A stretch of 24,000 bases of DNA, from the NCBI GenBank assembly GCA_031395015.1, contig JANNUH010000006.1, forward strand, positions 13,082-37,081, read 5' to 3'. A program made the translations under genes and the position numbers. Positions within the stretch are counted from its first letter, which is position 1; each line of letters opens with the position of its first letter. The stretch comes from Desulfobacterales bacterium (GTDB lineage: Bacteria; Desulfobacterota; Desulfobacteria; Desulfobacterales; Desulfobacteraceae). The notes under the pieces were generated by a model. The model saw nothing but the letters and a program-made list of their open reading frames with translations. It was not told the DNA's origin and searched no databases. Positions 3,088 through 24,000 of the stretch are shown here, one piece after another.

Positions 3088-3093
3088 TCATCC

Positions 3094-5230: not shown

Positions 5231-6139
5231 ATGAAACGAAAAATCGTTGCGGATTTACACAATCATACCACGTTATCGGACGGCGAATTCACCCCAATAG
5301 AATTGATTGAAAAGGCAAAAGCCATGGGGTTAAAGGCCATCGCCGTCACAGACCACGACACATTAAAGGGTTTGAAATCAGCAATGACCGCCGGGGAAAA
5401 ACTAGGGATCAAAGTGATTCCTGGAGTTGAAATTTCCATCCGTTTCAAGAGATCCTTTTTTACCGGGACCCTTCATCTCTTGTGTTATTTTTCTGTTGAT
5501 ACATTTTCCGATGAAGAATTGATGACGGAAATCACTCTTATCCTTGCCAGGGGAAGAGGGGAGGATCTTGTCCGGGCAAGAGTCAATGAAATCAATCGAT
5601 TTTTCGGCCCCAGGGGGATAACTCCCGTATTACCAAGGGTTATGGAATTTGAGGATATCGCCGGGCAGAGCAATAATGCCACCCGGCGTCATTTTGCCCT
5701 GGCATTGACGGAAACCTTGGGCATCAAAGACAAAAAAACGGTTCACTCGATCATTGGAAATGAAAGCCCTGCCTATCTTCCTTCGGGGGTGGAGCTGGAG
5801 GACGTCCGGGGGCTGATCCGGAAAAAAGGAATTCTTTGCGTCCTTGCACATCCTGCCGCAGGATCATTCCCGGGACCGGGGCATTATAAGGAAGTTCTTC
5901 CTCCCCTGGACACCGTGCTTCAGATTCTGCCGGAATTTCTTGAGGCAGGCATTCACGGCCTGGAGGTCTATTATCCCGGCCACACACAGGCACAGCAGGA
6001 TCATTTAAAAACCCTTGCAGCACAATATCATCTTCTCATCACCGGTGGATCAGACTGCCACGACGGCATGGATCGTCCGACAGGGGTGGAAGGGTTATCC
6101 GAATCAGAATACGAAATATTTAAGGCGGCATTGACATGA
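5231..6139 (+). CDS. PHP-domain metal-dependent phosphoesterase (TrpH/YciV-like)
   Basis: 302-aa ORF. PHP metal-ligand motifs DLHNHTTLSDG, AVTDHDT, GVEIS, LAHP and C-terminal GGSDCHD. Purine-rich stretch AGAAGAGAG directly upstream of the ATG. The stop overlaps the next start (ATGA at 6136-6139). Confidence 0.85.
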   Translation: MKRKIVADLHNHTTLSDGEFTPIELIEKAKAMGLKAIAVTDHDTLKGLKSAMTAGEKLGIKVIPGVEISIRFKRSFFTGTLHLLCYFSVDTFSDEELMTEITLILARGRGEDLVRARVNEINRFFGPRGITPVLPRVMEFEDIAGQSNNATRRHFALALTETLGIKDKKTVHSIIGNESPAYLPSGVELEDVRGLIRKKGILCVLAHPAAGSFPGPGHYKEVLPPLDTVLQILPEFLEAGIHGLEVYYPGHTQAQQDHLKTLAAQYHLLITGGSDCHDGMDRPTGVEGLSESEYEIFKAALT

Positions 6140-6588
6140 GAAGAAAAGAAAGAGAAATCAAGGGCAAAAAAGATATTGAACAGATTTTAATGGACAGCAG
6201 GGTCCTGCGTCTTGCCATGGTGGACAAGGATAAACCCTATCTTGTTCCCATGAATTTCGGTTACAGGGACGGAGCGCTTTATCTGCACAGTGCTTTGGAA
6301 GGAAGAAAAATCGATCTGCTCAAGAATAATCCCTTTGTCTGTTTTGAAGTGGACGAGATCGTCCATTTCAGGAAAGCAAAATCAGCCTGCGACTGGGGCC
6401 TGGAATACAAAAGCGTGATCGGAACCGGCAAAGCCGTTTTCCTTCATACCCTGGATGAAAAAAGGCAGGCCTTTGATATCATCATGGCAAACTATTCCGG
6501 CCGGGAATTTGAATATTCCGATGAAATGCTTGAAAAAACCCTTGCCATCAAGATTGAGATAGAGAATATGACAGGCAAACAATCCTGA
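6136..6588 (+). CDS. Pyridoxamine 5'-phosphate oxidase-family (NimA-like) flavin-binding protein
   Basis: 150-aa ORF. MRRKEREI...VLRLAMVDKDKPYLVPMNFGYRDGALYLHSALEGRKIDLLKNNPFVCFEVD matches the typical N-terminal pattern of the PNPOx-like split-barrel family. It overlaps the PHP gene by 4 nt. Confidence 0.75.
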   Translation: MRRKEREIKGKKDIEQILMDSRVLRLAMVDKDKPYLVPMNFGYRDGALYLHSALEGRKIDLLKNNPFVCFEVDEIVHFRKAKSACDWGLEYKSVIGTGKAVFLHTLDEKRQAFDIIMANYSGREFEYSDEMLEKTLAIKIEIENMTGKQS

Positions 6589-6660
6589 TCAGGGTTTAAA
6601 AGGCAATGTCGCCGGCTTTTTATTTGCTTGAATATTGGAAAATATGGACTGGAGTGCCCT

Positions 6661-7932
6661 ATGAAGATTTTGATTGCCGAAGATGATTATGTTTCAAGAC
6701 TTCTTGTGAAAAAAGCGGTCGAGAAAATCGGCCATGAAGTCATTGAGGCGGAAAACGGAAAGCTTGCCTGGCAATTATTTCTGGACCAGGACCCGGACAT
6801 GGTCATTTCCGACTGGATGATGCCGGAGATGGACGGAATCACCCTTTGCAAAAAGATTCGGTCTTCCGGGAAAAAAACCTATTCCTATATTATCCTGTTG
6901 ACGGCAAAGGACAGGATGACCGATCTTGTGGAAGTGTTTGACGCAGGGGCCGATGATTATATTATCAAGCCCTTTAACCCCGATGAATTGCGCTCACGGA
7001 TCAAGACCGGGGAAAGGATCATCCAACTGGAAGGCAGGCATTATCAATTGCAGGAAGAATTGACCCTCCGGAACAGCAAACTGGACGCAACACTCAAGGA
7101 ATTAAAGACAACCCAGGGCCGAATCCTTCAATCCGAGAAAATGGCTGCCGTTGGCCGGCTTGCCGCGGGTATGGCCCATGAGATCAATAACCCCATCGGA
7201 TTCATCGGCAGCAATCTGGATGCCTTGAAAGACTATATGGGCCATTTGGATGAACTTCTGTCCCGTTACCAGAAATTGTGTAGATTATTGATGGCCGCTC
7301 CGGAGGATAGTCTGAGTGCGGAAATAAAAAATGAAGTCAACGCCATCATACAATTTGAAGAACGGATTGAAATCGACTATCTTAAAAAAGATATTCCTGA
7401 ATTGCTCCATGACTGCAAGGAGGGAACCGAAAGGGTCGGAAAAATAGTTTCAGATCTGAAAAATTTTGCCCATCCGGGCAATGACAGGCAGATGCTGGTG
7501 GATATCAATAAGGGCCTTGAGTCTACCCTGAATATGGTTTGCAGTGAATTGAAATCCAAAGTCACCGTGACCCGTGAGTTCGGGGATATCCCCATGGTTG
7601 AGGGATTTCCCCAGAAATTGAACCAGGTATTCATGAATATCCTCGTCAATGCAGCCCAGGCCATAACGGAAAAGGGGGAAATCAGGATTGAGACAAAAAA
7701 AGAAGGGGATAATGTCATTGTTTCTATTTCAGATACCGGGTGCGGGATTGAGGAAGAACATCTTTCAAAGATATTCGACCCGTTTTTCACGACCAAGGAG
7801 ATTGGCAAGGGAACCGGTCTCGGCATGAACATCGCCTATAATATTATTGAAGAGCACAGGGGAAAAATCAGCATTCAAAGCACAGTGGGCAAGGGCACAA
7901 TATTTACCGTGAGTCTGCCGGGAAAATGTTAA
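6661..7932 (+). CDS. Receiver-histidine kinase (REC - coiled coil - HisKA - HATPase_c), no recognisable sensor domain
   Basis: The track ORF starts at TTG 6628. ATG 6661 (MKILIAEDD) with GGAG at 6651-6654 is preferred. The receiver is canonical: EDD, acceptor D in [14 protein letters not shown] in ILLTAKD, K in IIKPF. H-box [13 protein letters not shown]; N-box NILVNAAQA; G-boxes SDTGCGI and GKGTGLGM. Converges on the FapA-like gene with a 5-bp gap. Confidence 0.9.
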
Positions 7933-10391: not shown

Positions 10392-11129
10392 TTATCTGTT
10401 CAGGTCTGATGAATCAGTTGGTTGCGGCATCATAAACCCGTATTGAGTGGAGATTTCCCGGAATTGTTCAAAGAGTTCGGCAATGATGGCCGCATAAAGC
10501 GAATTAAGCCTTCCCTTTTCCGTCATATTTTTTTGTTTCAAAAGGGCTTGTATTTCATTGATATAATTTTTGTTTTCAAACCCTTTTTCAAGGACGGCAT
10601 TCAAGTCGGTGATCTTTTGATCTTTATGAAGAAGGGCCTTCTGGTGAATTTCCGTACTCTTTTTAAGGTCAATATTGAGCTTATATAATTTTGCATTCTG
10701 TTCTTTGGCCAGGGCAAACAGCCTATGGCTTTCCATGATGAGTTCATACTGCCCAAGCCCGGCTTTGACGGATTCGACCAGAACTTTATTATCCCATGGT
10801 TTTGAAATATATCGGTGGATGGAGCCTTTATTGACCGATTCGGTCACTGCATCCGCATCTGCATAACCAGTGATGAGAAACCGGATGGTGTCGGGTGAGA
10901 TTTCCTTTGCCTTTTGAAGAAAAACAGAGCCCATCATTTCCGGCATCCGCTGATCCGAAAGAATCATGGAAAAAGGATGAGATGCTTTTTCCATGCAGTC
11001 AAGGGCTTCTCTGCCCGACGACACATAGACGTATTTCACACCCATCCCCCGCATCAGGCGGCCCAGTGCTTTGCCGATCTGTTCTTCATCATCCACAATC
11101 AATACGGTGTGGTCAAAGGGTTCCGACAT
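10392..11129 (-). CDS. Response regulator: canonical receiver plus a C-terminal region of about 110 aa, coiled-coil-like, with no recognised output domain
   Basis: The track ORF starts at TTG 11156. ATG 11129 (MSEPFDHTVLIVDDEE) is preferred because GGAGG lies 6 nt upstream. Receiver residues are intact: DD, acceptor D in MILSDQRMPEMMG, T in FLITGY, K in YISKPW. The C-terminal part (LAKEQNAKLYKLNIDLKKSTEIHQKALLHKDQKITDLNAVLEK...) is heptad-like, with no HTH or enzymatic motif that I recognise. Confidence 0.9.
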   Translation of the reverse strand: MSEPFDHTVLIVDDEEQIGKALGRLMRGMGVKYVYVSSGREALDCMEKASHPFSMILSDQRMPEMMGSVFLQKAKEISPDTIRFLITGYADADAVTESVNKGSIHRYISKPWDNKVLVESVKAGLGQYELIMESHRLFALAKEQNAKLYKLNIDLKKSTEIHQKALLHKDQKITDLNAVLEKGFENKNYINEIQALLKQKNMTEKGRLNSLYAAIIAELFEQFREISTQYGFMMPQPTDSSDLNR

Positions 11130-11152
11130 ATTCAGCCTCCAAAAGCCTTGCC

Positions 11153-12292
11153 TCAAACCGGTTCATGATCCAGCGTCTCCCGGATTTTTACGGCCAGCTC
11201 TTTTCTGGAAAAGGGTTTTGAAACAAAATGGACATCCTCCGGCAGCAGCCCCCGTTGAGCAATGATATCAGCCGTATAGCCGGACATGAACAGTATTTTA
11301 AGATCAGGATACAGGGCTTTCAGCTTTTTGGCCAGGTCCGGGCCGGTCATTTCCGGCATGATCACATCCGTCAGCACCAGATCGATTCCGCCGATATGGG
11401 TTTGGGCCAGGTTCATGGCCTGGCCCGGGGTCGCCGCCTCCAGCGCTTCATAGTCCAGCCCCTCCAGCATTCTCTTGACGAGATTCAGAATGGGGACATC
11501 ATCCTCAATGATCAGCACGGTTTCATGATGTCCTCTGGGTATTTCCGTTTCATCGGGCAGTTTCGATTGTTGGGGGTCTCCTGCATGACGGGGCAGGTAA
11601 ATTCTGAAAGTCGTCCCTTTTCCAGGCTCGCTGTAAACATTGATGAAGCCGTCGTTCTGCTTGACGATGCCGTACACTGTGGCCAAGCCTAAGCCGGTCC
11701 CCTGACCCAGGTCCTTGGTGGTGAAAAAGGGTTCAAAAATGTGGTCAAGGGTTTGCCTGTCCATGCCGCAGCCGGTGTCGCTCACCGCCAGCAATACAAA
11801 ATCGCCGGGAACATAGCCGGGATGGGCTGCGCAATAGGACCCATCAAAAATCACATTATCTGTCTCCAGGGTAACCTCCCCGACACCGGCAATGGCATCC
11901 CTTGCGTTGACGCAGAGATTGGCCAGGATCTGATCCATCTGGGAAGGGTCTATTTTGACTGGCCCAAGGCCTGACCTTGGCCGCCAGGTCAGATGAATAT
12001 CCTCCCCAATAAGGCGCCGAAGCATTTTCAGCATGGATTCCACGGTCTGGTTAAGGTCGAGCACCTGGGGGCTGACGGTCTGTTTTCTGGCAAAGGCCAG
12101 TAATTGCCGGGTGATGTCGACAGATCGCTGGGCAGCTTTGAGAACCTGCTGGAGATCATCGTGAACCGTCCCGGCCGGGTCTATTCTGTCTATGACCAGT
12201 TGGGTATAGCTCAGAATAATGGTGAGCATATTGTTGAAATCATGGGCCACCCCGCCGGCCAGCCGCCCTACGGATTCCATTTTCTGGGCCTG
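11153..12292. repeat. Direct repeat copy 1 (1140 bp) = 3' part of HK1 encoding HisKA-HATPase_c-REC
   Basis: Collinear with 17949-19088 at a constant offset of 6796 nt, so there is no net indel. It includes a 90-nt perfectly identical run (12060-12149 = 18856-18945). Similarity starts at the stop codon, is weaker over the last 8 codons, and ends just upstream of [14 protein letters not shown]. Confidence 0.9.
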
Positions 12293-13078
12293 ATGAAGCT
12301 GGGCCTGCAACAGAGTCTGTTCAGCTTCCGCCTGCTTACGCTCAGTGATGTCGCTGACGATGTGGACCGCGCCGGAAAGATGCTTGTCTGCATCCAGGAT
12401 GGGATCCACCGTCACCTTAAACCATCGATCGTCGGCCTGCAATTCCATACTTTCGCGCTTCAGGGTCTTGCGCATCCGCAGGATCGGGCATTCAAGGATC
12501 GGCGCCTGGGTGCCATGGACGATCTCCCAGCAGTGTTTGCCTATCATTTCATCCGTTGCCCGTTGAAATATCCGCTCCGCTCCCCGGTTGGAACGTACCA
12601 CGCGCTGGTCGGCGTCGAGAATCCAGACAGCGTCTGCCACTGAGTTGAAAGTCAGTTGCCACTCCCGTGCCAGTTGCTCATTTTCCTCCAATAGGAATTT
12701 GAGGCGTAGAAATGCGTTGATGGTGGCCACCAGGATTTTCGGGTACACCGGCTGGGTCAGATATCCGTCTGCGCCTTGCTCCAGGCCTGTCACCCGGTCG
12801 TCGTTGCTCATGAACACGGCGGACAGGTGCACGACGGGAATGGCGGATAGTCGTGGGTTGGCCCTGATCTGCTTACAAACCTCAATGCCGCTGATGTCGG
12901 GCAGTCGGACATCGAGCAGAATCAGGTCCGGGCACTCTTCGGCCAGGCGCAGTGCCTCCCGGCCAGTGGCGGCTTCACGTACTTCAAACCCTGCCTGCTG
13001 AAGGATGCGGGTGGTGGTATAGCGCATGGCCTCGGTGTCATCCACGTTCAGGATGACCGGCTTTCGGCTATTTTTCAT
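11153..13078 (-). CDS. Hybrid histidine kinase REC - PAS - HisKA - HATPase_c - REC (called HK1 in the findings)
   Basis: The track ORF (11153..13309) carries a 77-codon Arg/Pro-rich extension that overlaps the upstream gene. The real start is most likely ATG 13078 (MKNSRKPVILNVDD), with GAGGGGG 6 nt upstream. N-terminal REC: acceptor D56 (codon 12911-12913), and Gln in place of the conserved Lys (YLTQP, codon 12752-12754). One PAS domain. H-box [14 protein letters not shown]; G-boxes SDTGCGM and GQGTGLGL. C-terminal REC: [28 protein letters not shown]. Confidence 0.9.
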   Translation of the reverse strand: MKNSRKPVILNVDDTEAMRYTTTRILQQAGFEVREAATGREALRLAEECPDLILLDVRLPDISGIEVCKQIRANPRLSAIPVVHLSAVFMSNDDRVTGLEQGADGYLTQPVYPKILVATINAFLRLKFLLEENEQLAREWQLTFNSVADAVWILDADQRVVRSNRGAERIFQRATDEMIGKHCWEIVHGTQAPILECPILRMRKTLKRESMELQADDRWFKVTVDPILDADKHLSGAVHIVSDITERKQAEAEQTLLQAQLHQAQKMESVGRLAGGVAHDFNNMLTIILSYTQLVIDRIDPAGTVHDDLQQVLKAAQRSVDITRQLLAFARKQTVSPQVLDLNQTVESMLKMLRRLIGEDIHLTWRPRSGLGPVKIDPSQMDQILANLCVNARDAIAGVGEVTLETDNVIFDGSYCAAHPGYVPGDFVLLAVSDTGCGMDRQTLDHIFEPFFTTKDLGQGTGLGLATVYGIVKQNDGFINVYSEPGKGTTFRIYLPRHAGDPQQSKLPDETEIPRGHHETVLIIEDDVPILNLVKRMLEGLDYEALEAATPGQAMNLAQTHIGGIDLVLTDVIMPEMTGPDLAKKLKALYPDLKILFMSGYTADIIAQRGLLPEDVHFVSKPFSRKELAVKIRETLDHEPV

Positions 13079-15218
13079 GGTTGGCCCCCTCTTTTTTTTG
13101 CCTGTATAGTTCAGTAATCTTACACAATGCCTCCTGCACTGCTTCCAGGGCCTTTTCCCGGTTGGGTGCCGCTTTGGACAGAACCGCCAGGGCTTGTTGG
13201 TTGAGGAAGCGGCGCTCGGTTTCGTCAAGTGTTTTGGAGGTGCTGATAATAACCGGGATCGCGCGCGTGGCCGGGTTGGCCTTGAGCCGTTGAAGGACTT
13301 CAAAACCATCCATGCCGGGCATGGTCAGGTCCAGGAAGATGACGTCCGGCTGCTCTGCTTCCGCCAGGATCAGGTCTGCCGTGCCATCGGAGGCTTCCAG
13401 GCTGGTGTAGCCGGTTCCGGCCAGATGACCCTTTAGAATATAACGGGCCACCTCTTCGTCGTCTATGATCAAGATTTTTTTCAGTGGTGCACGCCTTGCA
13501 AGGTCGCTCAATTTTCCCAATAGCCAATTCCGTTCAATGGGCTTCACACAATAATCCTCCGCTCCCAGAGAGAGGCCTTTGTCCTGCTCCTCCAGCAAAG
13601 AGGCAACAATGACGGGGATGTCCCTTGTGGCAGGGTTGGCTTTGATTTCAGTCAGGAATGACCATCCATCCTCATTCTCGTCGGGCATTAAGATATCCAG
13701 CACAATGGCCGTGGGTTTCATGCGCTGTAACGTCTGCCGGGCCTCACGGATGGATTGGGCCGGAAAAACCTTAAACCCGGAATCTTTCAGATATGATTGG
13801 TATACGAGCTGGGTGGCTGCATCGTCTTCGACCACGAGCACTGGATGGCGGGTGATATCACCGGGAGCGAGTGCCGCGACCTGTTCGTCTTTGGCCGGTG
13901 CATAGCGCACAGGGATGGTAATGGTAAAGGTGGCGCCTTCCCCCGGGCGGCTTTGCACAGTCACATGACCGCCCAGCAGTTCGGCCAGTTTACGGGAGAT
14001 GGGCAACCCCAGACCAGTGCCTTTGGGCTTGCCCTGTTGGGCGGTCTCCACCTGGGTGTATTCGTCAAAGATGCGTTCATGGTCTTCAGGTGCGATACCG
14101 ATGCCGGTATCGGCCACGGAAAATAGTACGGTCTGCCCATCGTCGCCCGGCCGGGCCGACACCCGGATCTCGCCCTGATGGGTAAACTTGATGGCGTTGG
14201 ACAAAAAGTTCCGCAGGATCTGGACCAGCTTGGCATCATCGGTGAATAGCGGCGGGAGGCTTGCCATGGACTCAAAGACCAGCTCAATCGACTTGTCTGC
14301 CAGGAGTGGTTTGAGAATGCCTCGCAGTCCGCTGAAAATCTCCTCTGCCATGAATTCGCGCGGCTTCACATTGACCTTGTTGGCCTCGATCTTGGCAAGG
14401 TCCAGCAGGTCGTTGATCTGCGCAGAAAAAGCATCGGCTGCCTGGTGGATGAAGGTCACCTGTTTTTCCTGTTCCAGGGTGAGGTCGCCGTCCGTTCGAT
14501 CCAACAGCAGTCGGGAGAGGGCCAGGATGGAATTGAGTGGGGTGCGGAATTCATGGCTCATATTGGATAGAAATCGGGATTTGGTCTGGTCGGCCGAGCG
14601 TAGCTGGGTGACTTTTTCATCCAATTCCGCATAGAGCGCCAGCACCCCTTGATTGGTATTCTCCAGTTCTTCCCGCTGGCTGCGCAGTTCATCCAGTGCG
14701 CGCAGGAGTTCCTGATTTTGCACGCGGACTTCCTCCAGCGGTGATTCGGCGTCTGTGGTCGCCAGTGACTCTGCAATGCGCATTAAGACGTCCGGCGTTA
14801 CTGCCGGGGCTGTCACCGGGAGGGTCTTGCCGATGGTCACCTCGGTCCCCTTACCGGGTTCGGTGTTGATACGGAACTGGTCCATCAGCCGCCGGGTGCC
14901 GACAATGCCCCTGCCCATTCCGGTGGGTGAGGTGTAGCGCCCTTCCAGGATGGCCTGGATATCTTTGATCCCCGGCCCCTGGTCGCGCACCGTGATGGTA
15001 AAGACCTGAGCTGGAGTGGTACCCTCTATCATGAATTCAACCTCGCCGTCCCTGCCATACTGGTAGGCATTGCGGGCAATTTCCGATACGGCGGTACTGA
15101 TGCGTGTCTGATCGTTTCGGTCAAATCCCAGCAGGTCGGCAATCCGCCGGGCCCGCTGCCGGGCATAGACCACGTCCTGTTCGTAGCGGATTTCAACGCG
15201 GGTAATCGATGTTTTCAT
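13068..15218 (-). CDS. Soluble hybrid histidine kinase: N-terminal RsbT/RsbW-like GHKL module - coiled coil - HisKA - HATPase_c - REC - REC
   Basis: 716-aa ORF. ATG 15218 has AAGGAG 6 nt upstream and an ATGA overlap with the phosphatase stop. Residues 1 to about 133 (VSEIARN, RDQGPGI, GMGRGI, PGKGTEV) align with the stand-alone RsbT in this window. H-box MSHEFRTPLNSI (His222, codon 14553-14555); N-box NFLSNAIKFT; G-boxes ADTGIGI and GTGLGL. Two receivers: VLVVEDD...IVLDILMP...CVKP and ILIIDDE...IFLDLTMPGMDG...VIISTS. I saw no TM, PAS or GAF domain. Confidence 0.9.
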   Translation of the reverse strand: MKTSITRVEIRYEQDVVYARQRARRIADLLGFDRNDQTRISTAVSEIARNAYQYGRDGEVEFMIEGTTPAQVFTITVRDQGPGIKDIQAILEGRYTSPTGMGRGIVGTRRLMDQFRINTEPGKGTEVTIGKTLPVTAPAVTPDVLMRIAESLATTDAESPLEEVRVQNQELLRALDELRSQREELENTNQGVLALYAELDEKVTQLRSADQTKSRFLSNMSHEFRTPLNSILALSRLLLDRTDGDLTLEQEKQVTFIHQAADAFSAQINDLLDLAKIEANKVNVKPREFMAEEIFSGLRGILKPLLADKSIELVFESMASLPPLFTDDAKLVQILRNFLSNAIKFTHQGEIRVSARPGDDGQTVLFSVADTGIGIAPEDHERIFDEYTQVETAQQGKPKGTGLGLPISRKLAELLGGHVTVQSRPGEGATFTITIPVRYAPAKDEQVAALAPGDITRHPVLVVEDDAATQLVYQSYLKDSGFKVFPAQSIREARQTLQRMKPTAIVLDILMPDENEDGWSFLTEIKANPATRDIPVIVASLLEEQDKGLSLGAEDYCVKPIERNWLLGKLSDLARRAPLKKILIIDDEEVARYILKGHLAGTGYTSLEASDGTADLILAEAEQPDVIFLDLTMPGMDGFEVLQRLKANPATRAIPVIISTSKTLDETERRFLNQQALAVLSKAAPNREKALEAVQEALCKITELYRQKKEGANHEK

Positions 15219-16243
15219 GGCGTACTCCTTGATTCTTTGATGACCACCACCAGGCTGTCATCCCGCACCCGGTTGTAGTCTCGGAACAGCACCCCGGCGA
15301 TGAGGGCAGGGTGCCGCCCGCGCAACCCCGGGGAGTCATCCAGGTCCCAGCGGCTGGTCAGTCCGTCCGAATTCAAGACGAGCAGTCCGTTTTCCGGCCA
15401 TGGATAGGTGAATTCCATAATCTTGCGCGCTTCAAGGCCTACGGTGCCGTTGTGTGAGACCATGCTGCGGACGGCATCATTGGAAAAAATTCGCCCGGAG
15501 ATGTTGCCCACACCGGCATAGTGCACCAGTCGCCGGTCCCAAAGCACCTCGGTTACGGCCACTGCTGCCCCGCGGGTGCTGCGCAGGGCGGCGTGCATTC
15601 GTTCAATCATCTCCACGGGACCGGTATGGGGATGATTCTCAAAGATGTCAACTGCCGCGGCAGAGGCTTCGGCGGCGTACTGGCCGTGGCCCAGCCCGTC
15701 GGCCAGCATGATCAGTGCCCGCTCGCGGGTCTGATGCAAGGCCCAGGCGTCGCCGCAGGATTCTTCCGTCGGTATAGGCAGACACACCGCCCCCACTTCC
15801 ATCCACACCTCCGGCGGGTGCGGTGGCTCGAAGGCGGGCAGCGGGCGGCGCCAGATGCGGCTCAGTACTGCAGTGCCATGACCGGGCCGGGAATAGATGT
15901 CAAACAGGGCCGATAGTCTTTGGATTGCGCCCAGACCGCTCCCAGGACTACCCGTTGTGGAGTGGCCGTTACGCAGGCTCTCTCCTATGTTACGAATTCC
16001 AGGTCCCTGGTCCAGAGCGAGCATTTCGATGCCGGGCACCTTGTCAATCCCGAGAGCGTTCAGAATGAGGTCGCCGCCTCCGGCGTGTTTCAACAGGTTG
16101 GTGGCCATTTCAGACACCACAATGGAAACATGCTCGACGCTGACCGCATCGAGTCCCAGCTCCCTGCCCATGGACGCAGCTCGCCGCCGGGCTTCGCCCA
16201 CCTGACTCGATTCTTCCACCCGCAGCAGTGTCGTTTTTTTCAT
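15215..16243 (-). CDS. PP2C/SpoIIE-family protein phosphatase with an N-terminal RsbT/RsbW-like GHKL module (RsbX-position gene of the stressosome cassette)
   Basis: The track ORF starts at GTG 16249. ATG 16243 gives an ATGA overlap with the rsbT stop, and either start is possible. N-terminal module motifs: VSEMATN, LDQGPGI, GSGLG, PGHGT. C-terminal SpoIIE/PP2C motifs: GDAWAL, LADGLGHGQYAAEAS, VLNSDGLTS. Confidence 0.9.
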   Translation of the reverse strand: MKKTTLLRVEESSQVGEARRRAASMGRELGLDAVSVEHVSIVVSEMATNLLKHAGGGDLILNALGIDKVPGIEMLALDQGPGIRNIGESLRNGHSTTGSPGSGLGAIQRLSALFDIYSRPGHGTAVLSRIWRRPLPAFEPPHPPEVWMEVGAVCLPIPTEESCGDAWALHQTRERALIMLADGLGHGQYAAEASAAAVDIFENHPHTGPVEMIERMHAALRSTRGAAVAVTEVLWDRRLVHYAGVGNISGRIFSNDAVRSMVSHNGTVGLEARKIMEFTYPWPENGLLVLNSDGLTSRWDLDDSPGLRGRHPALIAGVLFRDYNRVRDDSLVVVIKESRSTP

Positions 16244-16644
16244 ATCCACCTTGTGATCGTGATGCGTGTGCCCTTACCGGGCAAAGACCAGATGTCGAAT
16301 TCGTTCACCAGCCGTTTGGACCCGCTCAGTCCCAGGCCTAATCCGTCGCCTGTGGTATAACCGTCTTTCAGTGCCAGATCAAGGTCAGGGATGCCTGGCC
16401 CGTGATCTTCGAAAACAAGCCGAATACCCCGGCGGGTATTGTTCTCCAGCTCTTCCAGGCGCGCACCCCCGCCGCCGCCATAGGAAATGGTGTTGCGGCC
16501 CAGCTCGCTTGCTGCCGTGACCATCTTGGTCTGGTCCACCAGGCTGAACTTCATCTCCACCATCCAGATGCGCACGGCCTTCCGGACATTCACGAGGTCA
16601 TCTGAATTGCGCAGAATGACGTATTCACTCCGGATAATATTCAT
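16240..16644 (-). CDS. rsbT: RsbT-like serine/threonine protein kinase (anti-sigma regulatory factor family, GHKL fold)
   Basis: 134-aa ORF with ATG at 16644. N-box ASELGRN; EDHGPGI; GLGLGL; PGKGTRI. It sits directly after two STAS genes and overlaps rsbS by 20 nt. Confidence 0.85.
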   Translation of the reverse strand: MNIIRSEYVILRNSDDLVNVRKAVRIWMVEMKFSLVDQTKMVTAASELGRNTISYGGGGGARLEELENNTRRGIRLVFEDHGPGIPDLDLALKDGYTTGDGLGLGLSGSKRLVNEFDIWSLPGKGTRITITRWI

Positions 16645-17017
16645 GGCGCACCCCCGCCTGGGTTTCGATCAGGGAAGTGAGCATCGCCATACCTTTGTCC
16701 ACGGTGAGTGCGGTGCGCACGTTTTCCAGCGAAAGTCCCAGTTCCACGATGGTGATGGCCACTGCCGGGCGCATGCCTACCACCACGGTTTCGGCACCCA
16801 GCGTCCGGGTCATGGCGGCAATATTGCCAAGCATGCGGCCGATGAAAGAATCCACCATTTCCAGAGAGGAAATGTCGATGAGTACTCCTTTTGCCCGGTC
16901 CTTCACCACCCGGCCGGTCAGATCATCCTGCAGGGCCATGGCCAGGCGATCGTGCATATCCACCTGGATGGTTATCAGCAGGAAATGACCCATTTTGAGA
17001 ATTGGAATTCTATCCAT
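16625..17017 (-). CDS. rsbS: RsbS-like single-STAS-domain stressosome scaffold protein
   Basis: 130-aa ORF. IPILKMGHFLLITIQVDMHD...GVLIDISSLEMVDSFIGRMLGNIA...GMRPAVAITIVELG follows the B. subtilis RsbS pattern. This includes the phosphorylatable Ser in the (I/V)DSF motif (Ser57, codon 16847-16849). GGAGAGGAG lies upstream of the ATG. Confidence 0.9.
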   Translation of the reverse strand: MDRIPILKMGHFLLITIQVDMHDRLAMALQDDLTGRVVKDRAKGVLIDISSLEMVDSFIGRMLGNIAAMTRTLGAETVVVGMRPAVAITIVELGLSLENVRTALTVDKGMAMLTSLIETQAGVRHEYYPE

Positions 17018-17032
17018 GATGTTCTCCTCTCC

Positions 17033-17902
17033 TCATGCCTGGGCCTGCTTGCGTATGACCGAAATACCGGCCTGTTTAAAGGCGTAGGCCAGCGCATCGG
17101 CCAGCGAGGCCTTGGTGACGATGTCGTTGAAGGCTACACCCAGATGCACCATGGTCTGGGCGATCTGGGGGCGGATGCCGCTGATGATGCACTCGGCGCC
17201 CATGAGCCGGGCCGCGGCAACGGTCTTGAGCAGGTGCTGGGCCACCAGCGTATCCACCGCCGGTACCCCGGTGATGTCAATAATGGCAATCCCGCTGCCG
17301 GTTTCTACGATGGCTTGAAGGAGGCTTTCCATGACAATCTGGGTGCGGGAGCTGTCCAGCGTGCCGATCAACGGCAGGGCCAGAATGCCGTCCCACAGCT
17401 TCACGACCGGAGTGGAGAGTTCGAGCATTTCCTCTTGCTGGCGTTTGATGATTGTCTCGCGGCTCTTTTGAAAGGTTTCGACGGTGAACAGGCCCAGGCT
17501 GTCAAGCAGGACGGTTACCGTCCACATATCGCCCGATAGTTCTGAGACATCCTTGTAGCCCATTTCCTGCAGGCGGTTGAAAAGAGGCTGTTTCAGAGAA
17601 AAGACAAAGGTGGCGGTCTCGGTTGGCGTAAAATTCATGGCGGCCCGGGTCCGGGAAATTCCGGATAGAAAATCCCGCACGGGCGACCATTCCGGGGCCG
17701 TGATGTCCGTCAGGTTGCCACCGGCAACCGCCGGGACTAAAAGCGCCATAAACTCAGTCGATTCACGGCGCAGATCGGCTTCGGACAACAGGTCTTTGCG
17801 CAGGGTCAACGCATTCACCTGTACCTTAAGCCATCTGTCGACAATTTCCTTTTCAAAGGTGGTGAAGATCTCCTGGATTTTGCTTGTGTGGGTTGCAGTC
17901 AT
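17033..17902 (-). CDS. rsbR: RsbR-like stressosome sensor protein (RsbRD_N-type non-haem N-terminal domain + C-terminal STAS)
   Basis: 289-aa ORF with AGGAGG 7 nt upstream of ATG 17902. The C-terminal STAS region ELSTPVVKLWDGILALPLIGTLDSSRTQ...IIDITGVPAVDTLVAQ retains both Thr positions equivalent to the RsbRA phosphosites (Thr181, Thr218). The N-terminal approx. 150 aa contain a single His (His5, near the extreme N-terminus), so a haem-globin sensor seems unlikely. Confidence 0.85.
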   Translation of the reverse strand: MTATHTSKIQEIFTTFEKEIVDRWLKVQVNALTLRKDLLSEADLRRESTEFMALLVPAVAGGNLTDITAPEWSPVRDFLSGISRTRAAMNFTPTETATFVFSLKQPLFNRLQEMGYKDVSELSGDMWTVTVLLDSLGLFTVETFQKSRETIIKRQQEEMLELSTPVVKLWDGILALPLIGTLDSSRTQIVMESLLQAIVETGSGIAIIDITGVPAVDTLVAQHLLKTVAAARLMGAECIISGIRPQIAQTMVHLGVAFNDIVTKASLADALAYAFKQAGISVIRKQAQA

Positions 17903-17948
17903 TGGGGCACCTCCTGTTTTATGGTATCAATAGAATCTCAATATTATT

Positions 17949-19088
17949 TCAGCCATTATTATGATTCAGCACTTCCCGGATTTTTACGGCCAGCTCTTTT
18001 ATGGAAAAGGGTTTTGAAATGAAATTTGTATCAGCAGCCAGAAGTCCCCGCTGGGCAATGATATCGGCCGTATACCCGGACATGAACAGTATTTTAAGAT
18101 CAGGATACAGGGCTTTCAGTTTTTTGGCCAGATCCGGGCCGGTCATTTCCGGCATGATCACATCCGTCAGCACCAGATCGATTCCGCCGGTATGGGTTTG
18201 GGCCAGGTCCATGGCCTGGCCCGCGGTCGCCGCCTCCAGCGCTTCATAGTTCAGTCCCTCCAGCATTCTTTTGGCAAGATTCAGGATGGGAACATCATCC
18301 TCAATGATCAGCACGGTTTCATGATGTCCTGTGGGTATTTCAGTTTCATCCGGCAGTTCAGCCCGTCCGGGGTCTCCTGCATGACGGGGCAGGTAAATTC
18401 TGAAAGTCGTCCCTTTTCCAGGCTCGCTGTAAACATTGATGAACCCGTCGTTCTGCTTGATGATGCCGTACACCATGGCCAGACCCAGGCCGGTCCCCTG
18501 GCCCAGGCCCTTGGTGGTGAAAAAGGGTTCAAAGATATGGTCAAGGATTTGCCTGTCCATGCCGCAGCCGGTGTCGCTCACCGCCAGCAATACAAAATCA
18601 CCTGGAACAAAGCCGGGATGGACTGCGCAATAGGCTCCATCAAGGGTCACATGATCCGTCTCAAGGGTGAGCGTCCCGATACCGGCAATGGCATCCCTTG
18701 CGTTGACGCACAGATTGGCCAGAATCTGATCCATCTGGGAAGGGTCTATTTTGACCGGCCAAAGGCCTGACCCCGGCCGCCAGGTTAAATGAATATCCTC
18801 CCCCATAAGCCGCCGGAGCATTTTCAGCATGTATTCCACGGTCTGGTTCAAGTCCAGCACCTGGGGGCTGACGGTCTGTTTTCTGGCAAAGGCCAGTAAT
18901 TGCCGGGTGATGTCGACAGATCGCTGGGCAGCTTTGAGAACCTGCGAAAGATCATCGTGAATCGTCCCGGCCGGGTCTATTCTGTCCATGACCAGTTGCG
19001 TATAGCTCAGAATAATAGTGAGCATATTGTTGAAATCATGGGCCACCCCGCCGGCCAGCCGACCCACGGATTCCATTTTCTGGGCCTG
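17949..19088. repeat. Direct repeat copy 2 (1140 bp) = 3' part of HK2 encoding HisKA-HATPase_c-REC
   Basis: See copy 1. My hand alignment of the two encoded segments gives 41 differences in about 378 residues (about 89% identity). The plus-strand shadow ORFs 12104..12643 and 18900..19472 in the track are near-identical too, as expected for a nucleotide-level repeat. Confidence 0.9.
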
Positions 19089-20642
19089 CGCAAACTGGGC
19101 CTCCAGTTGTATATGGGCCGTGACATCCCGTTTCACGGCCACAAAATTGACAATGCGGCCTTCAGGGTCGAAAACCGGGGATATGGTGGCATCTTCGGTA
19201 AAGAGGGACCCATCCTTTCGTTTGTTGAGGATGCGGCCTTTAAAGGTATTCCCTGCCAGCAGGGTTTTCCAGAGATTTTCATAAAAGGCCGGATCCTGTT
19301 TGCCGCTTTTCAGGATCCGGGGGGTCTGCCCGCATATTTCTTCTTTTTTGTATCCGGAAATCCTTTCAAAAGCCGGGTTGACATATTGAATGGTCCCGGA
19401 AGGGTCTGTGATGATAATGCTGTCATCGCTCTGCTCAATGGCGGCCAGGAGTCTTTCCCTATCGGCCTCTGATTGTTTTTTCAGGGTGATGTCCTCAATA
19501 ATGGCAATATACCCCGTCAGTCTGCCCTCATTATCAAAGATGCTACTGGTGGACAGATTGATGAAAATCGAGGCCCCGTCTTTTTTCCGGCGTTCCAGTT
19601 CAATATGGGTGAGAGTTTGTTTTTGGGTTACCCGTTCTTTCAGTATTTTCGATTCTTCCCGGGTCTCTTCAGACACAAAGGGCGGCAGTTTTCCCAGGAC
19701 TTCAGCTTCTGTCCAGCCGAAAATAGTTTCAGCCGCTTTGTTCCAGCTTTGAATGAGACCGTCCGGGGAATAGCGGATAAGGGCCAGAGGCGAGGCGCTA
19801 ACCATTGTGCTATACTGAGTTTCGCTGGTATGAAGATTCTGTTCGGCCCGCTTTCTCTCACTGATATCCTGAAACGAGCCCTGGACCTTGACGATTTTAC
19901 CGGTTTCATTCCTCACCGCCACCCCGTTGGTTCTTACCCAGACCCGTTTTCCCGACCGGGTGAGGATTTCCAGTTCTTCATCATAGGGGATACCGTTTTT
20001 TGCACAATTTTTAAACATTCTTGTAATCCGGTCCCGCCATTCGGGCGCATAAAAATTGATGGCGTCTTTTACAAGGGGTGAATAACCCCTGGGCATTTCA
20101 TGGATATCGGCTACCGTATCAGACCAGCGGGCCGTATATTCCGGGATATCAACGCTCCAGCCGCCGAATTTTGCCGTTTCACCGGCGATGCGGAGAAGGG
20201 TATAGTTATCCTCCAGGTCCTGTTCCGCCTGTTTGCCCGTTTTTTTCTGCTTTGCTTCATCCAGTGCCCGCTTTACAGCAAAAGGAAGTCGTTCCAGCCG
20301 GTCTTTCAGGATATAATCCACGGCCCCCTGTCGAATCAGATCAATGGCCGTTTCTTCCCCAATGGAGCCTGAGACAACGATGAAAGGCGCATCCGGGGCT
20401 ATTTCCAGGGATTTTTTCAGGGCGGCAAAGGCATCATATCCAGGCAATCTGAAATCAGCCAGAATCATGTCATATTTCTGTTTTTGCAGGTATGACACAA
20501 ATTCCGCTTCATTTTCAGCGTGATCCATTTTCAATTCATATCCTGCGGCGATCAGGGATTCACGGATGATTTCAAAGTCCCTGAAGGAGTCTTCAAGGGA
20601 CAGGACGGTTAATTGTTGATCGGAATTGATTCTGGTTTTCAT
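17949..20642 (-). CDS. Hybrid histidine kinase REC - PAS - PAS - PAS - HisKA - HATPase_c - REC (called HK2 in the findings)
   Basis: The track ORF starts at ATG 20672. ATG 20642 ([18 protein letters not shown]) is preferred because AAGGAGGGG lies directly upstream and it avoids a 20-nt overlap. N-terminal REC: [19 protein letters not shown]. Three PAS domains, each ending in an ERKRAE or LKKQSE type linker. The transmitter plus C-terminal REC is about 89% identical to that of HK1. Confidence 0.9.
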
Positions 20643-20652
20643 AATCCCCTCC

Positions 20653-21090
20653 TTATTCAGGCGGCAGTTCATTGATCAATGCCCAGAACATCCCTAAATT
20701 TTTTATGGCATCGATGAATTCCTTGAAATTGACAGGCTTTACCACATAGGCATTGGTGCCCAGAGCATAAGATTTTTTCAGGTCCGGAGCTTCACGGGAA
20801 GAGGTGAGCATCACCACCGGGATGGTCTTTAATTTAGGGTCACTGCGAACAGCCTTGAGGACCTCCAGGCCATCCATGCGCGGCAGCTTGATGTCCAGCA
20901 GCATGACGGCCGGGTTTTCCGGTTTTCGCCCTGCGTATGGGCCTTCACAGCGCAGATAGTCCATGGCTGCAACCCCATCGTTGACCACAATGACCTGGTT
21001 TGCCAGCTTATATTCGTTCAATGCCTCCAGAGTCAGTTCGACATCCATGGGATTATCTTCTACGAGCAGAATGGTTTTTAAAGCGTTCAT
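20653..21090 (-). CDS. Single-domain CheY-like response regulator (Rcp1-like type usually paired with the upstream kinase)
   Basis: 145-aa ORF with AGGAG 5 nt upstream of ATG 21090. Motifs: ILLVEDNPMD, acceptor D in VMLLDIKLPRMDG, VVMLTSS, YVVKPV, and a C-terminal FW...PP tail. It lies 12 nt downstream of the 7TM kinase stop. Confidence 0.9.
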   Translation of the reverse strand: MNALKTILLVEDNPMDVELTLEALNEYKLANQVIVVNDGVAAMDYLRCEGPYAGRKPENPAVMLLDIKLPRMDGLEVLKAVRSDPKLKTIPVVMLTSSREAPDLKKSYALGTNAYVVKPVNFKEFIDAIKNLGMFWALINELPPE

Positions 21091-21102: not shown

Positions 21103-24000
21103 TTATCGTTGTAATGTAAAATAGAATTTGGCGCCTTTGCCCGGCTCTGCCTCAGCCCAGGTCCGTCCGCCGTGCCGAAGGATGATTCTGCGGACATTGG
21201 CCAGCCCGATGCCGGTTCCTTCATAGTCTGCGGCGGAATGCAGCCGTTGAAATACACCAAAGAGCTTGTGAGCATATTGCATATCAAATCCTGCGCCGTT
21301 ATCATGGACAAAAAATATATAATCTTTTTTTTCTTCTGTAAACCCGATTTCTATCTTTGCACGGTCTTTATTTTTTGTGAATTTGACGGCATTGTCCAGT
21401 AGATTGATCCACACCAGTTTTAATAAGGCCGGATCACCTGAAACCACCGGCAGTTCAGTGGTTTCCCATTGGATGACACGTTCCGGATGATTCTGAATGA
21501 CGGTGTTGAGGGCTTCCTTGAAAAGATCATTCATATTGATCAAGGTTTTGCGCATTTCCTGTCGTCCGGTTCTGGAGAACTTCAGCAGGGAATCGATCAA
21601 TTCGCCCATTTCAGTGGCGGAATCCACAATATTTTTAAAATAGTGACGCCCTTTTTCCGGAAGGACTTCGGGGAGGCGATCGACCAGGAGATTGATATAC
21701 CCGTTGATATGCCGGAGCGGGGCCCGCAAATCATGGGAAACCGAATAGGTGAATGCCTCCAGCTCACTGTTGGCTGCTTCCAACTGATAGGTACGTTCAA
21801 TTACCCGCTGTTCAAGTTCGGCATTTAGCTTAAGCACTTCTGCCTCTGCTTTTTTGCGTTTGGTTATGTCTTCGACCACAGAAACAAAGTACTTCGGTGT
21901 CCCTGCCTCATTGCGCATAAGCCCGACTGTGAGATTGGCCCACACCAATGAGCGGTCTTTTCGGATATAACGTTTCTCCATCGAATAGGTCGAAATCTCC
22001 CCAGCCAGAATCTGCCGAACAAAAGATAGGTCGATGTCCAAGTCCTCTGGGTGCGTAATGTCTTGGAAACTACATTGCAGCAATTCTTCGCGCGTGCGCC
22101 CGACAATGACGCAGAGTTGTTGATTTACGAGCATCCAACTCCCGTCCAACCCCACCTGGGCGATGCCGACAGCAGCCTGCTCGAAGGTCGAGCGGAATCG
22201 TTCTTCGCTGGTTTTGAGATCTGCCTCGCTGATCCGCAAGGCTTCCAATGATTTTACCCGCTCTTTGTAATACCGCATCTGTTGTCGTCGTATGGCCAGC
22301 ATCAGACCTGTGCCGGGGAAGGCCATGAGGGCGCTGATGAAGAGAAAGGTTCGCCATAGCCTCTGCCGCAGAGGGGCATAAATTTCATCCTGATCCATGC
22401 GGGTTACGATGAACCAGGGGGAATCGGGAACCGCCCGCACAAAGCCGACTGCGGGGTCTCCTTTGTAATCCTTGCCTTCTACATAGCCGTTTTCCCCCAA
22501 TACGGCTTTTACTGCCAGGACCTTTGTCTCTGTCAGGGGAATGCGCAGATTGAGGGCTGTCTGTTGCTGAAAGCGGAGTTCATTGAGGAACAGGACATCC
22601 TCCTTATCTTGACGGACGAGAAGAATTTCAGCGGTTTTACTGGAAATGGGCCATTGCTTTAAAAAGGGGTAGAGGCTGAGGGCCGGATCGATCTCTAATA
22701 CCAGGATGCCTAGAGGGTGATTTATACTAGCGTCTGCATATATCGGTACCAGGAAGGCCAGACGGATTGTGTTTTCGATTGCATGGGAATGAAAGTCAAG
22801 AAACATTGTCTCACCTGAACTCAGGACTTTTGCAGCGTCCTGGATCAGGTGGGGCGCCAGGGGCTCCGATGCATGGGAAGAGGTGATCCGCTCCTGGCCA
22901 TTGATATCCATGAGAAAAACCCGGTCATATCGATATACCTTGTGAAGGCTGTCCAGCCAGGCCTGGAGCATATCGACAAAGGGCTTGTCCGTCGGGTTTT
23001 CAAGATAGGCTTGCACAAGGGCAGAAAAGCTTGGGCTGTTGCGCAGGAACTCGGCATCTCCCAATCGCTCCGATCGCCAATCCGTTAACCGGTTCACAGT
23101 CAAATCAGCCACGGCGGATAATTGATCCTCCACCTGGCTGCGGAAATGTTTTTCAAAATTGATATAGGAGAGATATCCGGCAGCCATGAGGGCAATGGCC
23201 AGCAGGCCGAAGATCAGGCCAAACAAGGCCTGGGAGGGCTTTGCCCGGTGATCTGCCGGCTGCATGGCATTCTCGTAGGACGCCAGCGCCTTTTTCAGGA
23301 AATCAAAGCGGAATATTGCCGCGGCGGCCAGCGCTGTCCCTGCGACCAGACTCGGAATGGTGGGGTTGAAACTCCCCGCCGGAAGGAGCTTGAAAAGGAT
23401 GAAGGCTGAAGCAATGACCGGGATGATGGCCGATGCAGACAGCAACACCGCCTGGAGCCGGTCGTGATTTGCCTTGCGCCGGGCCGTCAGCAGGAGAAGA
23501 ACGGAACCCGTCAGCATGGCCGCTTGTGTATAAAAAGTATGGATGAGATACCAGATTCCCGGAATGCGTGAGGAAATTTCAGCCATCCAGAAGGGGCCTT
23601 CCCTGTGGAACCCCACCTCCTGCTGCACCCACAGACCGTGGCGGCTGCTGGTTAAAACCATGGCACAGGTGATCAGAGGAACGACAAACAAGCCGACCCC
23701 CAGTTTCTTTGAAAGCCAGTGTCGCCGCCCGCTGTACTCAAGCACAAAGAGCAGCCAGAGCGGAGGAATTACGGCAAATCCCAGAAAGCGCGACTTGAAC
23801 CAGAAAAGGGATAGGGCCTCTGTAGAGACGGTCATGGACAGAGTTTCCCCCATTGAAATAAAACACAGGGCCAGGGCCAGCAAAAAATAATAGCCGGCTC
23901 CCGGCACTTCCCTCTGCCGCCAGGCCTGGAAGGCCAGGAATCCGGTCATACAAACGGCTGCCAGAATAATCCCGAAATATAGACCGGTCTGAAAACCCAT
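21103..24000 (-). CDS. Membrane sensor histidine kinase: N-terminal 7TM module (HisKA_7TM-like) - TM - Cache/PDC-like extracytoplasmic domain - TM - PAS - HisKA - HATPase_c
   Basis: 965-aa ORF whose ATG is the last triplet of the window (23998-24000). The N-terminus MGFQTGLYFGIILAAVCMTGFLAFQAWRQREVPGAGYYFLL looks like the usual start of the 7TM kinase module. The start is therefore probably genuine, although the ORF could extend beyond the window. A region of about 270 aa between TM helices (LIFGLLAIALMAAGYLSYI and FLFISALMAFPGTGLMLAI) ends in a Cache-like YKGDPAVGFVRAVPDSPWFIV. PAS domain; H-box VSHDLRAPLRHINGY; G-boxes HDNGAGF and GTGIGL. Confidence 0.9.
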   Translation of the reverse strand: MGFQTGLYFGIILAAVCMTGFLAFQAWRQREVPGAGYYFLLALALCFISMGETLSMTVSTEALSLFWFKSRFLGFAVIPPLWLLFVLEYSGRRHWLSKKLGVGLFVVPLITCAMVLTSSRHGLWVQQEVGFHREGPFWMAEISSRIPGIWYLIHTFYTQAAMLTGSVLLLLTARRKANHDRLQAVLLSASAIIPVIASAFILFKLLPAGSFNPTIPSLVAGTALAAAAIFRFDFLKKALASYENAMQPADHRAKPSQALFGLIFGLLAIALMAAGYLSYINFEKHFRSQVEDQLSAVADLTVNRLTDWRSERLGDAEFLRNSPSFSALVQAYLENPTDKPFVDMLQAWLDSLHKVYRYDRVFLMDINGQERITSSHASEPLAPHLIQDAAKVLSSGETMFLDFHSHAIENTIRLAFLVPIYADASINHPLGILVLEIDPALSLYPFLKQWPISSKTAEILLVRQDKEDVLFLNELRFQQQTALNLRIPLTETKVLAVKAVLGENGYVEGKDYKGDPAVGFVRAVPDSPWFIVTRMDQDEIYAPLRQRLWRTFLFISALMAFPGTGLMLAIRRQQMRYYKERVKSLEALRISEADLKTSEERFRSTFEQAAVGIAQVGLDGSWMLVNQQLCVIVGRTREELLQCSFQDITHPEDLDIDLSFVRQILAGEISTYSMEKRYIRKDRSLVWANLTVGLMRNEAGTPKYFVSVVEDITKRKKAEAEVLKLNAELEQRVIERTYQLEAANSELEAFTYSVSHDLRAPLRHINGYINLLVDRLPEVLPEKGRHYFKNIVDSATEMGELIDSLLKFSRTGRQEMRKTLINMNDLFKEALNTVIQNHPERVIQWETTELPVVSGDPALLKLVWINLLDNAVKFTKNKDRAKIEIGFTEEKKDYIFFVHDNGAGFDMQYAHKLFGVFQRLHSAADYEGTGIGLANVRRIILRHGGRTWAEAEPGKGAKFYFTLQR

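Follow-up and report, generated by a model that had tools for sequence, protein, structure and literature searches.

Near-identical output modules in two hybrid histidine kinases that bracket a stressosome cassette in a Desulfobacterales genome

Two hybrid histidine kinases, HK1 and HK2, lie on either side of a stressosome gene cassette in a 24,000-nucleotide (nt) stretch of DNA from a Desulfobacterales bacterium, referred to here as the window. Their input halves are of different origin. Their output halves are near-identical copies of one module, which joins a dimerization and histidine phosphotransfer (DHp) domain, a catalytic and ATP-binding (CA) domain and a receiver (REC) domain. The window is contig C19 of a 4.34-Mb genome (G000) assembled in 157 contigs, and every gene between 10392 and 24000 is on the minus strand. 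The features that are compared below are as follows.

11153..12292, minus strand: M1, DHp-CA-REC module of HK1 together with its stop codon (Pfam HisKA, HATPase_c and Response_reg)
17949..19088, minus strand: M2, DHp-CA-REC module of HK2 together with its stop codon (repeat alignment and Pfam)
11153-13078, minus strand: HK1, 641 amino acids (aa), REC-PAS-HisKA-HATPase-REC (Pfam)
12293..13078, minus strand: HK1_N, the REC-PAS input half of HK1, of cassette type and foreign composition (ATG at 13078; G+C content at third codon positions, GC3, 0.70)
17949-20672, minus strand: HK2, 907 aa, with REC, three PAS domains and HisKA-HATPase-REC (Pfam)
19089..20672, minus strand: HK2_N, the input half of HK2, with REC and three PAS domains, resident (Pfam; orthologue in the related genome G041; GC3 0.54)

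A repeat search of the window recovers a family of direct repeats at a spacing of 6796 nt. Base-by-base comparison at that fixed offset shows that 11153-12292 and 17949-19088 are identical at 1036 of 1140 positions (90.9%), with zero insertions or deletions (indels), and that the longest perfect run is 90 nt and ends at 12149. The original prediction, made by reading the same DNA, had described the repeat with these borders, this offset, no indels and a 90-nt run, and its figure of about 89% aa identity agrees with the 41 differences counted over 379 aligned residues. Identity in 60-nt windows is 0.78-1.0 within the repeat and 0.12-0.43 beyond it, and at each end it sinks to a random level over no more than about 60 nt. 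A sharply bounded tract of this kind, inside otherwise diverged genes, is the pattern expected of gene conversion. Other copies of the DHp-CA-REC module occur in the same genome, but the next best are only 66-70% identical to the pair, so the similarity of M1 to M2 is well beyond the paralogue background and not a matter of chance.

The nucleotide differences between M1 and M2 are distributed 29/20/55 over codon positions 1/2/3. Nonsynonymous divergence (dN) is 0.061 and synonymous divergence (dS) is 0.22. The resulting ratio is about 0.27 and both frames are intact; purifying selection has thus maintained the two copies since they were last identical.

The TGA stop codons of HK1 and HK2 are in register, in keeping with the earlier placement of one end of the repeat at the stops. 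However, the final nine codons have already diverged (5/9 aa), so the effective start of high identity is at about 11165-11180. The upstream border is located four codons ahead of the conserved H-box motif, just 5' of the DHp domain as had been proposed. Pfam domains agree that the repeated unit is a transmitter-plus-receiver cassette attached to a REC-PAS input in one protein and to a REC input with three PAS domains in the other. To call the proteins completely different upstream of the repeat was a slight overstatement, because the PAS domains that adjoin the two modules retain weak homology (~26-29% aa). Both M1 and M2 can be classed as hybrid kinase modules, with Pfam domains over the cut-offs and with the catalytic histidine motif (GGVAHDFNN) and the receiver aspartate motif unchanged between the copies. 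The window also encodes an SBP-PAS hybrid kinase at 1-2259, the third kinase of this comparison, which matches the H-box region of M1 and M2 at 869-920 (75-79% over 52 nt); this indicates that H-box DNA is strongly conserved among these paralogues.

The DNA between the two modules holds HK1_N and the genes of the cassette, which are listed here in order of position.

13068..15218, minus strand: cassette kinase RsbT-HK, an RsbT-like domain fused to HisKA-HATPase-REC-REC (Pfam; 78% to the counterpart in the related cassette L042 over residues 1-470)
15215..16249, minus strand: phosphatase, HATPase_c_2 with PP2C/SpoIIE (Pfam; closest relatives 70-78% identical, metagenomic)
16240..16644, minus strand: RsbT-like switch kinase (Pfam; 79% to L042)
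16625..17017, minus strand: RsbS-like STAS protein (Pfam; 84% to L042)
17033..17902, minus strand: RsbR-like protein, RsbRD_N with STAS (Pfam; 81% to L042)

The RsbR, RsbS, RsbT and PP2C genes are together in one operon, in which they overlap or abut. Their Pfam domains (RsbRD_N and STAS, STAS, HATPase_c_2/HATPase_c, and SpoIIE/PP2C_2) are the gene content that identifies a stressosome rsbRST(X) locus. A promoter and terminator scan, which was otherwise uninformative, found no terminator-like site in the 46-nt gap between HK2 and rsbR. The start of HK1 has a ribosome-binding site ahead of it and overlaps the stop of the preceding gene; it was corrected to the ATG at 13078 from the first ATG of the open reading frame (ORF).

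By composition the cassette genes and HK1_N are foreign to this genome. They have a G+C content of 0.56-0.62 and a GC3 of 0.67-0.73, where the genome as a whole has a G+C content of 0.456 and its long ORFs (n=1245) have a mean GC3 of 0.511 (standard deviation 0.072), with only 0.3% of them above 0.67. The corresponding GC3 is 0.54 for HK2_N and 0.62-0.63 for M1 and M2. The phosphatase has no close match among 24 congener genomes, and the best full-length match to HK1_N among 50 congeners is just 34-35%.

Relatives of the cassette were found in other organisms by alignment-based scans, whereas a contig scan with the phosphatase alone returned none. The closest, reached via phosphatase homologues, is L042, a metagenome-assembled contig from NCBI with a G+C content of 0.62. 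Its RsbR, RsbS, RsbT, phosphatase and RsbT-kinase match their counterparts in the window at 76-84% identity, and the last gene of its operon encodes a REC-PAS hybrid kinase of 648 aa with 47% identity to HK1_N. The cassette loci counted here, 105 in all, are each at least 7 kb long and come from other organisms in many phyla; in 41 of them, belonging to several phyla, a REC-PAS gene like HK1_N stands right after the RsbT-kinase. HK1-type kinases elsewhere carry a module of their own, of the same or another type, and the HK1 of the present lineage may have done so before the exchange. In these other loci the transmitters attached to the HK1-type REC-PAS input are of two unrelated types, one of them DEFLAVLSHELRSPLN-like in Nostoc (loci L049-L198; proteins P0122-P0183). 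Since inputs of this type have been joined to at least two transmitter families across lineages, the junction between PAS and DHp is a recurrent point of exchange.

Some cassette loci vary in other ways. The RsbT-HK of the window (13068-15218) carries two fused receivers and is 716 aa long, as is roughly the version in L137. In the closest cassettes the RsbT-like kinase has 451-483 aa (for example, L042 11005-12456), and in L207-L210 it is followed by a separate 307-aa receiver protein. In L044 (14656-16753) the phosphatase and kinase precede rsbRST, and two transposase genes abut the cassette; the rearranged order and the adjoining transposases hint that the stressosome cassette is mobile. 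In the metagenomic cassette locus L132, the ATPase part of the RsbT-like kinase is copied in a kinase 2.4 kb downstream (2634-3339 and 5078-5783, 92% over 707 nt).

The junction within HK1 can be read to the codon. The protein runs through ...DITERKQAEAEQTLLQAQLH up to the border and then into QAQKMESVG, and HK2 likewise continues with QAQKMESVG on the module side. The linker between PAS and DHp in HK1 measures 24 residues from DIT to MESVG, the same as in the terminal kinase of L042, and the linker of HK2 is exactly seven residues shorter. Because the HK1 linker has the length of the cassette type and that of HK2 is seven residues shorter, the exchange appears to have taken place in register with the alignment of the paralogues. 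Linkers between PAS domains and kinase cores have a known periodicity, and on that basis both HK1 and HK2 probably retain a heptad-compatible signalling helix.

L042 resembles the window in more than its gene content. Its cassette is bracketed as well: a REC-only hybrid kinase precedes rsbR, and the REC-PAS kinase closes the operon. These two share a direct repeat of 1190 nt (6363-7552 and 13210-14399, offset 6847) with 95.3% identity and no indels, which spans the region from the linker to a few codons short of the stops (dN 0.036, dS 0.09; 93.7% aa identity within the pair). This second bracket also bears on whether the first could have been created by an assembler that stitched two strain variants of one kinase module into a single contig. 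The genome is fragmented (157 contigs) and has an estimated contamination of 1.95%, both of which would favour such an error. However, each copy of the module has unique in-frame flanks on both sides, so that two independent misjoins would be needed; the longest exact run shared by the copies is just 90 nt; and the frames are intact at a dN/dS of 0.27. With the same architecture present in the independent assembly L042, and in a Logan contig over its phosphatase-kinase-HK1 junction, an artefact of this sort is extremely improbable.

The genes that flank the two kinases allow the locus to be compared with that of related genomes.

10392..11129, minus strand: REC_dn, resident receiver gene downstream of HK1 (76-78% to the syntenic gene of G021 and G010)
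20653..21090, minus strand: REC_up, resident single-domain receiver upstream of HK2 (Pfam; 82-85% in G041 and G021, same position)
21103..24000, minus strand: resident seven-transmembrane (7TM)-Cache-PAS histidine kinase, the upstream synteny anchor (Pfam; syntenic in G041, G021 and G010)

In G021 and G010 the order of genes is the 7TM kinase, REC_up, a single kinase, a 252-aa gene on the opposite strand, REC_dn, a FapA-like gene and a REC-kinase. Two ancient, independently conserved kinases in relatives would have refuted the original prediction; instead, G021 and G010 have one kinase at the locus and no cassette. G041 encodes a full-length HK2 orthologue (67% aa) with the same genes upstream. 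In the relatives the interval from the kinase to the receiver gene is 1.1-1.8 kb and contains the 252-aa gene. In the window only 23 nt separate the HK1 stop from the start of REC_dn, which has its own ribosome-binding site, and the ribosome-binding region of REC_dn is conserved up to the junction with HK1. The 252-aa gene is missing near 11130-11152 and is absent from the whole of the studied genome, where the best tblastn match is 33% over 87 aa.

Several further observations concern the relatives. The gene that the window lacks encodes a conserved protein of 252-263 aa of unknown function that begins MKSIA(V/A)MAKDLNIS (L040 3536-4327 in G021 and L041 8412-9170 in G010). In G010, a 1215-aa ORF (L041, G010:C19, 9969-13616) fuses residues 2-730 of the 7TM kinase to residues 278-906 of the HK2 orthologue, and the receiver gene between the two kinases is gone; this looks like a deletion that fused adjacent kinases at a PAS domain. 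The nearest relative of HK2 (17949-20672) also differs between its two halves: G041 has about 70% aa identity in the input and 62% in the module, the input of G021 has 57%, and G021 and G010 have 71.5% in the module (L039, L040 and L041). Module exchange or unequal rates may thus have occurred in the history of the HK2 orthologues as well.

In module trees M1 and M2 pair at 100/100 support and fall, at 97/90, in one clade with the resident kinases that occupy the syntenic position in G010, G021 and G041. They share 89.9% aa identity with each other and 70-71.5% with the syntenic kinases of G010 and G021, so that similarity within the genome exceeds that between orthologues. The closest paralogue of either kinase core is in the same genome and has different upstream domains, as is seen in lineage-specific expansion. 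Cassette-type kinase modules elsewhere are 45-54% identical to M1 in aa sequence, and the L042 modules are 60-63% identical to M1 and M2. Because its input is of the cassette type and its module is placed with resident kinases by the tree, HK1 is a chimera of an imported input and a resident-type output. The original prediction, which had proposed that module shuffling or gene conversion gave two different inputs one output, is sustained in this respect: the copies are mutually closest, HK2_N is resident and HK1_N is of cassette type.

An approximately unbiased (AU) test rejects a single clade for all four modules of the two brackets (p = 0.0067). Because the M1/M2 pair and the L042 pair do not share a most recent common module, they look like the products of independent events and not like one long-lasting concerted pair. 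The same result speaks against the possibility that the bracket arrived ready-made, with donor modules already homogenised, and that recombination inside the HK2 module then replaced the resident one to leave both copies foreign. L042 does show that such a bracket pre-exists in another organism, and the GC3 of M1 and M2 (0.62-0.63) is above the values for HK2_N (0.54) and for the genome on average (0.51). However, the orthologous resident modules are equally raised in GC3 (0.63 in G041, 0.67 in G021 and 0.57 in G010, a range that includes M1 and M2), the GC3 of the cassette genes is clearly higher again (0.67-0.73), and M1 and M2 are grouped with the syntenic resident kinases (97/90), away from the L042 pair. 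Entry of the modules with the cassette, an idea prompted by their intermediate GC3, ceased to be the preferred reading once the tree, the AU test and the GC3 of orthologous modules were taken into account, and import of a finished bracket is improbable.

The most probable history, at roughly 0.55, is that the cassette was imported and that the module of HK1 was then replaced in register by that of HK2 through gene conversion. A GC-rich stressosome operon, consisting of rsbR-rsbS-rsbT, the PP2C phosphatase, the RsbT-like histidine kinase and the terminal REC-PAS hybrid kinase HK1, would have been gained horizontally and inserted directly downstream of the resident HK2, in place of the 252-aa gene of the relatives. 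The DHp-CA-REC module that HK1 brought with it would next have been overwritten in register by a copy of that of HK2, in an event of non-reciprocal homologous recombination (interlocus gene conversion). The conversion tract would correspond to the entire stretch over which the paralogues can be aligned, which begins four codons ahead of the H-box and runs into the final codons of the gene, and M1 and M2 would then have diverged under purifying selection. Of this history, the repeat with its borders, the presence of a single kinase in relatives, the foreign make-up of the cassette and the resident affinity of both modules are observed; in what order the events took place, which copy served as template, how recombination proceeded and what followed for function are inferred.

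Duplication may instead have come first. HK2 or just its module could have been duplicated, in tandem or by ends-in, Campbell-type or homology-facilitated illegitimate integration, and the foreign cassette and HK1 input could then have landed between the copies, where they were fused in frame to the distal module. Such a course would suit the direct repeats that exactly bracket the foreign block at an offset of 6796, the compositional step at the border between HK1_N and M1, and the resident type of both modules. It would also suit the position of M1 beside resident DNA, 23 nt from a receiver gene with a conserved ribosome-binding site. However, an extra deletion is required to account for the missing 252-aa gene, and a precise loss of the module that HK1-type kinases bring with them elsewhere is needed as well. 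The borders are not at arbitrary points but at the stop codon and where homology between the paralogues ends, and L042 reached the same geometry with a different module. We regard this order of events as rather unlikely.

The simplest form of such a process had been put forward in the original prediction, where the bracket was taken as the trace of a Campbell-type crossover or a segmental duplication. The geometry is real, with direct repeats on both sides of the cassette and HK1_N at an offset of 6796. However, the DNA beyond the distal repeat is not the unchanged ancestral sequence, as the 252-aa gene is missing, and no known cassette-type module (45-63% to M1) is similar enough for an incoming segment to have recombined and explain the present identity. 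A simple Campbell crossover is disfavoured because a foreign module of 45-63% identity could not give two 91% copies without later homogenisation. It also fits poorly, as does a plain duplication, because the ancestral downstream gene is gone and the borders are the limits of paralogue homology.

Within the module, the pattern of identity is that of the orthologues. Identity between M1 and M2 declines from the DHp domain (0.96) through the CA domain (0.91) to the receiver (0.88); between G021 and G010 the values are 0.83, 0.79 and 0.72. The 90-nt run (P ~0.012 against a uniform spread) is situated in the DHp domain, which is also the most conserved part among orthologues. A second or mosaic conversion tract, suggested by this run and by a dS of 0.098 in the DHp domain, was dropped in view of the same gradient between orthologues.

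Several points weigh against import followed by conversion. The 90-nt run is not evidence of a separate conversion tract, because the DHp domain is also the most conserved between orthologues. When the differences are polarised with three outgroups, 47 derived sites fall in M1 and 29 in M2, a mild asymmetry with no clean block structure; the excess in M1 could reflect either recent installation of that copy or patches of foreign sequence that were left behind. The genomes compared are congeners and include no sister strain or species, so the direction of copying and the mechanism are not seen directly. Gene conversion would also be inefficient if the modules had been only ~60-65% identical before it. 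The clade that places M1 and M2 with the resident kinases at 97/90 comes from a single alignment of 377 columns, and their position as sister of G010 and G021 has moderate support (85-90/65-74). The clade rejected by the AU test was named only after the first tree had been inspected, and the assembly is in 157 contigs.

Self-BLAST of all retrieved cassette loci that were 5 kb or longer, together with eight further gene contexts, found a bracket repeat only in L042. The other close cassettes have no flanking kinases; one other cassette contig with upstream kinases is known from gene context alone and was outside the DNA comparison. Homogenisation of this module does occur in other settings. The studied genome has two more kinase pairs with different inputs and ~1.13-kb DHp-CA-REC repeats whose borders are equally sharp, neither linked to stressosome genes. 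In one, C109 25228-26350 and 29741-30863 are 85.9% identical in nucleotide sequence, the ORFs are 745 and 457 aa long, and the pair (24130-30904) flanks a third kinase gene. In the other, C104 24398-25522 and C99 245-1369 are 93.5% identical and the ORFs have 774 and 921 aa. Genomes of this genus carry dozens of such modules each. The two further pairs indicate that module homogenisation among hybrid kinases is a general habit of the lineage.

The residues that distinguish the copies are few. In the DHp domain 72 of 75 residues are identical between M1 and M2, the differences being I34M, V43I and Q48S, and the receivers differ at 11 positions, of which V272A and D280N are in the region assigned to helix alpha-1. 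To judge from these sequences, HK1 and HK2 plausibly share nearly the same phosphorelay partners. Insulation between paralogous kinases normally depends on differences in the DHp domain, and HK1 and HK2 may therefore form heterodimers. The imported REC-PAS input, translationally coupled to the stressosome genes, and the resident REC input with three PAS domains would then drive nearly the same core and receiver. No HPt domains are encoded on this contig, and seven are found elsewhere in the genome. Recombination between the repeats would be expected to remove the cassette, with a return to one kinase at the locus.

This case is a clean, fresh and well-delimited instance of known expansion and domain shuffling among hybrid kinases, made more interesting by the independent second bracket. 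As a natural rewiring it is unusually clean. The breakpoints are resolved to the codon in the PAS-to-DHp linker and at the stop codon, the register of the linker is kept with a difference of exactly one heptad, and the origins of both halves are traceable, the donor half to a resident gene and the recipient half to an imported operon. A bolder proposal, which we consider doubtful, is that capture of a neighbouring resident DHp-CA-REC module is a recurrent, selected step that plugs an acquired stressosome operon into the host phosphorelay. It would have occurred in at least two lineages, those of this genome and of L042, and would leave imported REC-PAS and host inputs on one shared, possibly heterodimerising core. 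If such capture recurs beside stressosome cassettes more often than proximity explains, it would represent a general route by which transferred sensory modules enter host signalling; otherwise, this is one more documented case of hybrid-kinase expansion and shuffling. The junction between PAS and DHp is in any event tolerant of module swaps, which is of use in kinase engineering.

Lineage-specific expansion combined with domain shuffling, for which hybrid kinases have an apparent propensity, was described by Alm et al. 2006 (PMC1630713), with one example in Desulfovibrio vulgaris. HK1 and HK2 follow that pattern in that the closest paralogue of the core is in the same genome and the upstream sensory domains are different. 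Unlike the pattern described there, the event at this locus is recent (91% nt identity) and both of its breakpoints are resolved to the nucleotide; one partner is a gene of a horizontally acquired cassette, and a second locus arrived independently at the same outcome. The main text of that study does not use the term 'gene conversion'. Concerted evolution of prokaryotic paralogues via gene conversion has been surveyed (PMC6053082), in a main text where the word 'kinase' is absent. As in concerted evolution, identity is greater within genomes (90% in G000 and 94% in L042) than between them (60-63% across the two). In contrast to it, only the output module is homogenised here and the inputs are unrelated, and the AU test (p = 0.0067) rejects a most recent common module for the two pairs.

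The stressosome genes themselves are best compared with Vibrio vulnificus, which has a minimal rsbRSTX stressosome module with a two-component module downstream (PMC9237108). In gene content, the window has the same succession of an RsbR with sensor and STAS domains, RsbS, RsbT and a PP2C phosphatase, followed nearby by two-component proteins in place of a sigma-B cascade. The components differ in several ways. The RsbR of the window has an RsbRD_N domain and not a globin, its phosphatase has an N-terminal RsbT/RsbW-like ATPase domain, and the kinase that comes next has an RsbT-like N terminus. In a further departure from the Vibrio system, the last gene of the operon encodes a REC-PAS hybrid kinase; on the reading favoured here, import followed by gene conversion, the output half of this kinase has probably been swapped for that of a resident neighbour.

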